From the NCBI GenBank assembly GCA_964590575.1, contig CAZPWM010000018.1, positions 1-43,904 on the forward strand: a DNA stretch of 43,904 nucleotides, in the 5' to 3' direction. Below are positions 1 to 1,451 of this stretch, piece by piece. Every line of letters begins with the position of its first letter. Position 1 is the first letter of the stretch. Under the pieces are notes generated by a model. It ran no database searches. It was not told the DNA's origin and worked only from the letters and a program-made list of their open reading frames with translations. Source of the stretch: an uncultured archaeon (GTDB lineage Archaea > Asgardarchaeota > Thorarchaeia > Thorarchaeales > Thorarchaeaceae). The translations under genes were made by a program, and so were the position numbers.

Positions 1-252
1 ACTGTTTCTTCGTGTCATAACATTAAGCCATTTTCTCACGAGATACCAAATCACTGGTACAATGACTATTGTGTCGATAATCAGAGCGGGTGCTGAAGGA
101 AATTGTAGTGCCGGGATTCCTAGTAACCAGTTGATTGGACTGATGAAAATCCAAGCGAAATAGATGAATACGACAACCATCATCACTGCAATAATGGTTC
201 CCTTGATGGGATCTCCCTGAGGATTTCTTACTCCTTCCGGAGTTTTTTTTTG
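1..252 (-). CDS. Putative -1 frameshift extension of the ChlI-like ORF, with two predicted TM helices; runs off the window edge
   Basis: -1 frame open for 84 codons to position 1 ([46 protein letters not shown]...[20 protein letters not shown]); in-frame TAA at 264-262 just upstream; A9 run at 251-243. Confidence 0.65.
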
Positions 253-1451
253 CCTTCCTGCTTACCAGATGTAGCAAACTTGCTGCCTCGACCAAACCGA
301 CCTCCACTTACTCGAGGTCCTGATTTGTCATCGTCATCTTCTTCTGGAACCTCGGTGGGAGACTTGCGCCGTTCTGTCTTCTGAGCTACTTCTGCAGCTT
401 TTGTGACAGCTTGGTCAACATCATCAGGCGACGGAGGGTCTAAGAGACCTCCTCGACGAGTTCTGTGACTAAGCACAAGCTGTGATGCAAGTTTCATATC
501 ATCTAGCGTGACCTGTGTTCTACCCTCAAGTGCAGCATTGGTAATAGCGGCTTTGCTGATAATGATATCCGGTCTCACACCATCCACTTCAAGTGCATCA
601 CATGCCATTGCAATGGCTCTAAGATTGGCGTCAGGAAGAACAACATCTTTTAGCAAGTCTTTTGCCTTAATTATTCGATCCTGAAGTTCAGACTGTGGGA
701 CCTTCCAATTTTCTCTGAACTTATCTGGATCTTCTTCGAATGCTAGATTTCTTCTAACAAGTTGCATTCTTTCCTCAATAGAGTGATTACTCCCGACTGC
801 AACGTGGAGAGGAAATCTATCCAAGAGTTGCGGCCTAAGCTCGCCCTCCTCTGGATTCATTGTACCAATTAATACAAAGTCAGAGGGATGGGCAACAGAG
901 ATTCCTTCTCGTTCTATGACGTTTATCTTAGTTGCTGCAGCATCCAAAAGATCGTCGACCAAGTGGTCGGGAAGTAGGTTCACTTCATCAACATAGAGAA
1001 CATTCTGGTGTGCTTCAGCAAGGATTCCAGGTCTCAATGCTTGAATCCCTTCTTTCAACACACGTTCTATGTCGAGTGAACCGATTAGTCGGTCTTCAGT
1101 TGTTGAGAGGGGGAGATTGACAACCCGCATCTTTCGAGATTCAGATTTGAGTCTAGTTCCAGATTCTATAGATCTTCTGCAATCAGCGCACAGAAGGTCT
1201 TGATTATTAGGATTACATCCGAATCTACATCCAGTAACAACATCCACCTCAGGCAACAAATCAGCCAAAGCTCGAACAACAGTAGTTTTTCCAGTACCCT
1301 TTGGTCCTGATATCAGGACTCCACCAATTTGTGGATTGATGCCATTGAGAATTAGGGCTAGCTTTAGTCGTTCAAGACCAACCAGTGAGGTAAAGGGTAA
1401 GGTTGTTCGTTTTAACTCGCCCATAAGCATCCCAATATGTTGTACTTCCAT
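228..1451 (-). CDS. ChlI/BchI-type (Mg/Co chelatase subunit I family) AAA+ ATPase
   Basis: Walker [32 protein letters not shown], Walker [30 protein letters not shown]; Pro/acidic C-terminal linker as in ChlD. Confidence 0.92.
230..251 (-). other. Candidate frameshift signal: A9 slippery run plus ACTCC-GGAA-GGAGT hairpin
   Basis: Minus strand reads GGC AAA AAA AAA CTC CGG AAG GAG TAA. Confidence 0.6.

Follow-up and report, generated by a model that had tools for sequence, protein, structure and literature searches.

A probable conserved -1 recoding site on an A-run in a chlD-like gene of Thorarchaeota, with a membrane hairpin in the predicted long product

Background

The closest described counterparts of the locus analyzed here are magnesium-chelatase genes of the frameshifted (fs-) chlD type, 23 of which have been reported from six genera, including Methanocaldococcus and Methanococcus, all of them shifting by -1 on poly-A; reporters in E. 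coli gave shift efficiencies of 63% for a run of eleven A (A11), 40% for A9 and 10% for A7 (PMC3711429). The chlD recoding family has been classed under programmed ribosomal frameshifting (PRF), with the motif A_AAA_AAR (PMC5009743). Slippery sites with downstream structures have been described for fs-chlD genes, carriers devoid of CobN and of the B12 and chlorophyll pathways have been assigned to a 'stage 1', and in many organisms ChlI and ChlD are encoded as separate genes (PMC9227772). Here we describe a gene of this kind in an uncultured archaeon of the Thorarchaeota (Asgard). It lies at the start of a stretch of 43,904 nucleotides (nt), hereafter the window, which corresponds to positions 1 to 43,904 of contig CAZPWM010000018.1 (C18 below) in assembly GCA_964590575.1. 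A ChlI-type AAA+ ATPase reading frame (ORF1) ends there just after a run of nine A, and a second reading frame (ORF2) follows at -1. Based on comparative sequence analysis, we consider it highly probable (about 0.88) that the A9 run of this chlD-like gene is a genuine and conserved site of programmed -1 recoding.

The gene shares several features with the fs-chlD genes: the same ChlI-type AAA+ frame overlaps a VWA frame at -1, the boundary between the domains carries a poly-A or A_AAA_AAR site, homologues in fused form are known elsewhere, and one gene would give rise to a small and a medium subunit, with archaeal members already known. We found the following hallmarks of the family: a ChlI-type AAA+ module, a VWA domain with a metal ion-dependent adhesion site (MIDAS) in the second frame, fused homologues, a conserved -1 overlap and a switch of coding frame. 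In contrast to fs-chlD genes, a two-helix hydrophobic hairpin follows right after the shift site, and no conserved downstream RNA structure is observed. We assign it to the recoded chlD-like genes reported by Antonov et al. 2013 (PMC3711429). What it adds to them is an Asgard host lineage, a long product with a membrane hairpin, and the absence of any CobN/ChlH partner. Thorarchaeota are not among the lineages named in the parts of the three fs-chlD papers available to us (PMC3711429, PMC5009743, PMC9227772). Furthermore, a full-text search, judged on titles and the first lines of abstracts, returned no paper on chlD recoding in Thorarchaeota or other Asgard archaea or on membrane-anchored ChlD-like proteins; supplements and the Chelatase DB may list such genes. 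The abstract of PMC8037382 names only readthrough and the -1 PRF of fucA as unequivocal cases of archaeal recoding.

Two other systems are useful for comparison. The motors ChlI/ChlD (BchI/BchD) and CobS/CobT share with the Thorarchaeota gene an AAA+ module close to ChlI/BchI and a C-terminal VWA domain with a DxSxS motif. Here, however, a membrane hairpin occupies the linker, and the short and long forms carry one and the same AAA+ module, its Walker motifs intact. The tau and gamma forms of dnaX are likewise long and short AAA+ proteins obtained through a slip on an A-run with a nearby stop, by ribosome or by polymerase. In E. coli, dnaX undergoes -1 ribosomal frameshifting on A_AAA_AAG; in Thermus thermophilus, transcriptional slippage takes place on an A-run. 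In dnaX the slip leads to the short form, whereas in the A9 state seen here it would lead to the long form.

Results and discussion

A -1 junction on a run of nine A

All features of the junction are on the minus strand. ORF1 (228..1451) encodes a protein of 407 amino acids (aa), the short product of standard decoding, and its 3' end reads GGC AAA AAA AAA CTC CGG AAG GAG TAA. The A9 run, our candidate slip site, lies at 243..251; it reads AAA AAA AAA in the ORF1 frame and contains the heptamer A_AAA_AAA. The ORF1 stop TAA (228..230), located 12 nt past the run, sets the 3' limit of the interval in which a shift can take place, and a TAA closing the -1 frame upstream of the run (262..264) sets its 5' limit. 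Positions 231..242 are dual-coding: LRKE in frame 0 and (T)PEG(V) in frame -1. The -1 frame, which represents the start of the ORF2 part of the long product, spans 1..261 with 87 codons in the window, and remains open from 261 to window position 1, that is, up to the end of the contig. Its earliest ATG, GTG or TTG codons are a GTG at 186 and ATGs at 183 and 180, all within the first hydrophobic stretch. The coordinates given in an initial annotation made from the window alone are thus all confirmed on the sequence, as is its statement that the -1 frame has no start codon until inside a hydrophobic helix.

ORF1 carries the Walker A motif GPKGTGKT and the Walker B motif LYVDEV. It scores above the Pfam cut-offs for PF07728 (AAA_5, 52.1 bits), PF17863 (AAA_lid_2, 46.5 bits) and PF01078 (Mg_chelatase, 41.5 bits). 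It matches the solved ChlI structure 8osf (PDB) with an E value of 1.6e-97, and 6l8d and 1g8p/2x31 are among the close solved ChlI/BchI structures. An assignment to MoxR-type AAA+ proteins failed, with 18.2 bits for PF07726 (AAA_3) and 21.9 bits for PF20030 (bpMoxR) at a cut-off of 27.

Long A or T runs are depleted in the 3.4 Mb genome: we observed 15 runs of at least 9, against about 53 expected under a first-order model. Because of this depletion, and because the run is kept across the family, its presence in ORF1 is beyond chance. The majority of the 15 runs lie in DNA with short frames only, probably non-coding; two further runs of 9, at G000:C70:16251-16259 and G000:C108:6747-6755, fall within long open frames (157+114 and 159+25 codons, respectively).

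The second half of the gene lies on another contig

Window position 1 is the start of C18, one of the 194 contigs of this genome, and the contig break is 242 nt from the run. Another contig of the same genome, C65, overlaps window positions 1-92 in the same orientation with 97% identity and 3 mismatches (G000:C65:17454-17545, L002:1501-1592); one of the mismatches changes Val to Thr in the second hydrophobic helix. The break looks like an assembly bubble caused by strain variation, which split the gene in two. The order of genes in relatives is PALP (divergent), ORF1, ORF2, AIRS and SurE; among 37 loci, AIRS was seen behind ORF2 in 35 and PALP ahead of ORF1 in 28, the others being too short to judge. 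As this order joins the contents of C18 and C65, we take the two contigs to be neighbors.

C65 prolongs the -1 frame by 445 codons (L002:253-1590, minus strand). The extended frame reaches the VWA/MIDAS domain expected of a ChlD-like long form: outside the window, on C65, ORF2 matches PF13519 with 50.4 bits (cut-off 27) and PF00092 with 38.9 bits, and has the MIDAS motif DVSLS. Furthermore, ORF1 and ORF2 match successive parts of a single profile, TIGR02442, at positions 2-351 and 400-618, respectively.

The junction is conserved in relatives

We compared the junction across 60 sources, composed of the window, 22 loci within the genus and 37 further relatives. These are metagenome-assembled genomes of 'Candidatus Thorarchaeota' / Promethearchaeota (Asgard), from many separate assemblies. 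Five sources are without the junction and 55 have it, in 36 distinct versions. A strong ORF1 orthologue is found in 22 of the 24 other genomes of the genus; the remaining two, both 83% complete, gave weak matches at the level of paralogues.

An A-run with ORF2 at -1 is present in 32 of the 36 distinct junctions, in relatives down to 58% protein identity, and the only in-frame fusion among the 36 (in genome G001) passes through A10. Within the 32 junctions, the run is A9 in 26, A10 in two, A11 in three and a displaced A7 in one. The ORF1 stop lies 12 nt past the run in the 26 A9 junctions. In the locus with A7 (L056), A9 is lost, but CCA AAA AAA TAA is found at the ORF1 stop. The position of the upstream -1 stop varies. 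In three loci (L055, L061 and L068) it falls within the run itself, GGT AAA being read as G GTA AA.. to give TAA, and the interval open to a shift narrows to 22, 22 and 13 nt, respectively. With so little sequence left, the shift has to occur on the run itself.

The coding signature changes frame at the run

We then considered selection in each reading frame over the 14 codons from the ORF1 stop to the first ATG of ORF2, in 32 sequences. Within the -1 frame, the entropy of the alignment columns is 0.33 bits at first, 0.27 at second and 1.36 at third codon positions. Compared pair by pair, the sequences show synonymous to non-synonymous differences of 3097:1293 when read at -1, 310:3891 when read in frame 0 and 240:3849 when read at +1. 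Ahead of the run, it is frame 0 that holds the synonymous signal (717, versus 191 and 171 in the other frames). The coding signature thus switches at the run, from frame 0 before it to frame -1 after it. Directly past the run, Thr-Pro is kept in 24 of the 26 A9 junctions through ACT/ACG and CCG/CCC changes, which in frame 0 are Leu/Arg and Arg/Pro substitutions. In 26 of the 32 junctions no ATG, GTG or TTG occurs in the ORF2 frame ahead of a conserved PIKGTI block, and the ORF2-frame codon spanning the ORF1 stop is always ATA, GTA or GTG (14, 12 and 6 cases). Given this coding signature and the missing start codons upstream of the ATG, translation of the ORF2 frame would begin at the run without a start codon. 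Together, the conserved junction and the frame-specific selection support the proposal of the initial annotation that one gene gives a soluble ATPase and a membrane-tethered partner.

Weighing the alternatives

Several observations count against programmed recoding, and we present them here with the explanations that they may favor. First, the relatives are kin, and the counts above overstate the number of independent cases. Second, C18 and C65 are joined by a 92-nt overlap with 3 mismatches and by synteny, not by any single contig of this genome. Third, the case for a long form being made at all is drawn from selection on ORF2. Fourth, one RNA contig gives a weak hint of an added base: X20 record 5, 151 nt at depth 2 from an RNA library, has one extra T after window position 242, equivalent to A10 on the coding strand. 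It extends only 9 nt past the run, carries four other differing letters and comes with no matched DNA; at about 97% identity to the window, it belongs to another strain. Fifth, four of the 36 junctions do not fit (G001, G017, G002 and L058); in L058 the upstream sequence is too short to judge. Finally, start codons available to ORF2 on its own are found across the junctions.

These start codons could mean that there are two separate genes and no fusion: a ChlI-like ATPase and a membrane-anchored VWA protein starting at the Met-Met of helix 1 (ATG 183/180) or arising through termination-reinitiation. At least one ATG in helix 1 is kept in 32 of 32 junctions, and in six of 32 a GTG in the ORF2 frame overlaps a TGA variant of the ORF1 stop, where gene callers place the start. 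In public annotation ORF2 stands alone as a 'VWA domain-containing protein' of about 492 aa, and the separate ChlI and ChlD genes of many organisms (PMC9227772) offer a precedent. However, the 14 codons ahead of the ATG and the Thr-Pro codons past the run bear the coding signature of the ORF2 frame, no canonical start exists there in 26 of 32 junctions, and in the same number the ORF1 stop is overlapped by a GTA or ATA codon. Two separate genes would furthermore leave unexplained the kept A-run, the -1 relation maintained across A7, A10 and A11, and the -1 stops inside the run. We regard this explanation as quite improbable, although independent initiation may yield a VWA-only membrane protein as an additional product.

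Homopolymers are classic contingency sites, and the gene might be subject to phase variation at the DNA level, with A10 cells making the fusion and A9 cells only the ATPase, or might be a young pseudogene. Three of the misfits point in this direction. In G001 (L018 = L049), ORF1 and ORF2 are in frame via A10, in an 898-aa open frame reading ...GKKKTPGKIRRPEGNPIKGTICAVMMVV...; in G017 (L023 = L051), ORF2 is at +1, with GAGGC before A9 versus GAGGGC in close relatives; and in G002 (L025 = L036, G002:C4), ORF1 is broken and matches only residues 8-242 and 371-407, in different frames. The 32 junctions in the same -1 state speak against phase variation, since random on/off switching would scatter the states, and in the lineages with A7, A10 and A11 the flanking sequence brings the offset back to exactly -1. 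A9 is also found in the DNA contigs of two studies made independently, with the proviso that contigs hide rare variants. As for decay, ORF2 is under purifying selection at 58-93% identity and is therefore not decaying. Phase variation and pseudogenization thus appear very improbable.

These three misfits also allow local readings. The A10 run of G001 could still give both products with reversed logic, as in dnaX: a -1 slip on it (L018, G001:C1, run at 2686-2695) would yield KKKLPVK-stop, the usual tail of the short form. To make its long form, G017 would need the run to lose one base or gain two; this locus may represent an error, a decaying copy or a hint of slippage both ways. In G002, the ATPase gene appears to be broken or misassembled in mid-gene, and the C-terminal piece of ORF1 remains at -1 relative to ORF2.

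The idea that A9 is an assembly or sequencing artefact of an in-frame A10 fusion, prompted by the error-proneness of homopolymers on some platforms and by the contig break 242 nt from the run, is scarcely credible: the same break occurs in dozens of assemblies from different groups and assemblers, contigs from two other studies have A9, lineages with A10 or A11 still require a -1 shift, and the zero-frame stop is kept 12 nt past the run in the 26 A9 junctions. The DNA contigs of the two other studies come from Logan and span the run with no indel: X2 record 2 covers window positions 56-362 and X3 record 9 covers 206-414, both without differences. A contig was considered to bridge the run when it had 31 letters on either side; X3 record 8, like the X20 contig, has 9 nt past the run, and the X4 contig starts at 241.

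A predicted membrane hairpin follows the probable shift site

The window part of the -1 frame has two hydrophobic helices on the minus strand, in agreement with the two transmembrane-like helices of the initial annotation. Kyte-Doolittle hydropathy in 19-residue windows reaches 2.75 over residues ~16-49 of the 87, where helix 1 lies (115..198), and 2.15 over residues ~52-77, where helix 2 lies (34..102, followed by a basic stretch); the highest peak in ORF1 is 1.36. Both flanks of the hairpin are basic, with KKK...R...K before it. An AlphaFold2 model of the ORF2 part of the L006 orthologue, built from 31 sequences, has a mean predicted local distance difference test (pLDDT) of 67.5. It shows helices at 13-41 and 52-79 (pLDDT 81-89) separated by a 10-residue loop, then low-confidence linkers and a VWA core, which Foldseek matched best to VWA domains. 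A pair of helices would place the ATPase and the VWA domain on the same side of the membrane, and the basic flanking residues fit a cytoplasmic location. A conserved SPINW motif marks the end of helix 1. In helix 2, an Asp (LIIDTIV) is kept in the genus, whereas several relatives further away, L062 and P0015 among them, have Asn instead.

Although transmembrane helices after the shift had been thought unusual for this gene, and are indeed present, they are not peculiar to it: its nearest in-frame ChlD-like relatives share them. In-frame fusions include G001 (898 aa), P0005 (880 aa), L026 (876 aa) and L027 (889 aa). Of these, L026 and L027, which belong to other families within the phylum, carry hydrophobic linker segments in a single open frame. 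P0014 (1063 aa, annotated as 'VWA domain-containing protein [Promethearchaeota archaeon]') has several such segments. We inspected 34 proteins with a Walker A motif, taken from 57 representatives (of at least 589 aa, plus P0015) among the best 150 matches of a search over 1.84 billion clusters. Hydrophobic segments between AAA+ and VWA are found in 22 of the 34 (735-1060 aa) and are absent from 12 (626-803 aa); our strict Walker A pattern missed classical ChlD-like proteins with GxxGxAKS, and 22 of 34 is a lower-bound description rather than a frequency. These in-frame proteins have the same order of AAA+ module, hydrophobic segment(s) and VWA domain as the Thorarchaeota gene; they differ in being single open frames with no slip site at the junction, and many have more than two hydrophobic segments. 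Linkers with four to eight segments are seen in P0014 and P0048 (~1060 aa) and in P0046, P0053, P0061 and P0068 (945-983 aa), which by their sequences are probable polytopic membrane versions of the AAA+-VWA architecture.

RNA structure and the nature of the proposed slip

The initial annotation also reported a 5-bp GGAA-tetraloop hairpin abutting the run. The hairpin, ACUCC-GGAA-GGAGU (230..243, minus strand), is present in this sequence and is probably without function. It is missing from the fold of lowest energy for 170-262 (-26.3 kcal/mol, z -2.2, matched by 7 of 200 shuffled sequences), and it is broken in L008, L010, L013 and others. RNAalifold was given 27 of the 32 junctions (L005, L011, L021, L035 and L056 being omitted to limit redundancy), each from 45 nt ahead of the run to 110 nt past it. 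It gave a consensus of -0.2 kcal/mol with six pairs, one of them with a compensatory change, and no conserved stem-loop or pseudoknot 5-9 nt past the heptamer. We accordingly rejected the GGAA hairpin as a stimulator. Among cis elements, conservation is confined to the run and the zero-frame stop close to it.

We propose the following course of events. Standard decoding would stop four codons past the run and yield the 407-aa soluble ChlI-type AAA+ ATPase. In a fraction of expression events, a slip of one base on the run would instead lead to a long protein of about 900 aa, composed of the AAA+ module, a basic and Gly-rich linker, the two-helix membrane hairpin, a conserved juxtamembrane stretch and the VWA domain with its MIDAS. 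The slip could be made by the ribosome, through re-pairing of tRNA-Lys on A_AAA_AAA, or by RNA polymerase, through an extra A in the mRNA. What the sequences establish is the anatomy of the site, its conservation, the frame-specific selection and the A9 of the DNA; the production of both proteins, their ratio, their assembly and their topology we infer.

Between the two agents, we lean towards slippage of RNA polymerase, to which we give about even chances, over purely ribosomal -1 frameshifting, itself quite plausible; both may contribute. A9 or longer is found in 31 of the 32 junctions, which we count in favor of polymerase slippage, together with the lack of conserved RNA structure, the weak hint of an extra base in the X20 RNA contig and the genome-wide depletion of A/T runs. 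In favor of ribosomal slippage, the A7 of L056 stands exactly in A_AAA_AAA phase before the stop, and the family has been filed under PRF (PMC5009743).

Gene neighborhood and possible function

A tetrapyrrole context, in which the motor would serve CobN/ChlH, was considered and rejected. The CobN/ChlH large subunit (PF02514) is found neither in the window's own genome (91% complete) nor in any of 28 genomes of the genus (completeness 71-99%); as a control, the same search found it in five of 14 named genomes. No tetrapyrrole gene is observed among the neighbors, which are a threonine-synthase-like PALP enzyme, an AIR-synthase-related protein and SurE. Scores also remain below the curated cut-offs: the fused L018 protein obtains 568.8 against 779.45 for TIGR02442 (putative cobaltochelatase) and 300.8 against 499.55 for TIGR02031 (BchD-ChlD), and ORF1 obtains 377.4 against 466.95 for TIGR02030 (BchI-ChlI).

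If ChlI/ChlD and CobS/CobT are a guide, the two forms might build a mixed AAA+ assembly tethered to the membrane, with a client held by the MIDAS. We read the gene product as a putative motor that works like ChlI/ChlD, with the client on the VWA/MIDAS domain; a role as a chelatase subunit is not implied. Since these genomes lack CobN/ChlH, the client would not be CobN/ChlH. A more specific proposal is tentative and, taken as a whole, rather doubtful: RNA polymerase would insert the extra base, the slip rate would set the ratio of soluble AAA+ to membrane-tethered AAA+-VWA protein, and the resulting machine, non-tetrapyrrole in view of the missing CobN, would act on a client of the membrane or envelope bound at the MIDAS, by remodeling or loading it.

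A functional partner might be the AIR-synthase-related protein, whose gene lies downstream of ORF2, on its strand, in 35 of 37 Thorarchaeota loci. In this genome it is encoded on C65 (L070:5507-6583, minus strand) and matches PF00586 and PF02769; its nearest relatives are HypE, SelD and ThiL, below all cut-offs. A tRNA scan of the window found none.

Conclusions

Well-supported archaeal recoding sites are few, and among titles and first lines of abstracts we found none in print concerning Asgard archaea. At the present site, nature provides a clean test between two possibilities: slipping of an archaeal, Pol II-like RNA polymerase on A9, and shifting of an archaeal ribosome in the absence of a stimulator. 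Programmed transcriptional slippage in archaea, if true, would go beyond the archaeal recoding named in the abstract of PMC8037382. In practical terms, ORF1 and ORF2 are now filed as unrelated genes and should be joined in annotation.

For the Thorarchaeota, a conserved A-run would split the output of one gene into a soluble ATPase and a membrane-anchored ATPase-VWA protein, and would thereby set the stoichiometry and location of the subunits by simple means that can be tested. Two findings, the absence of CobN/ChlH from the genus and the many in-frame, membrane-anchored ChlD-like proteins, point to an uncharacterized job of the ChlI/ChlD motor outside chelation.

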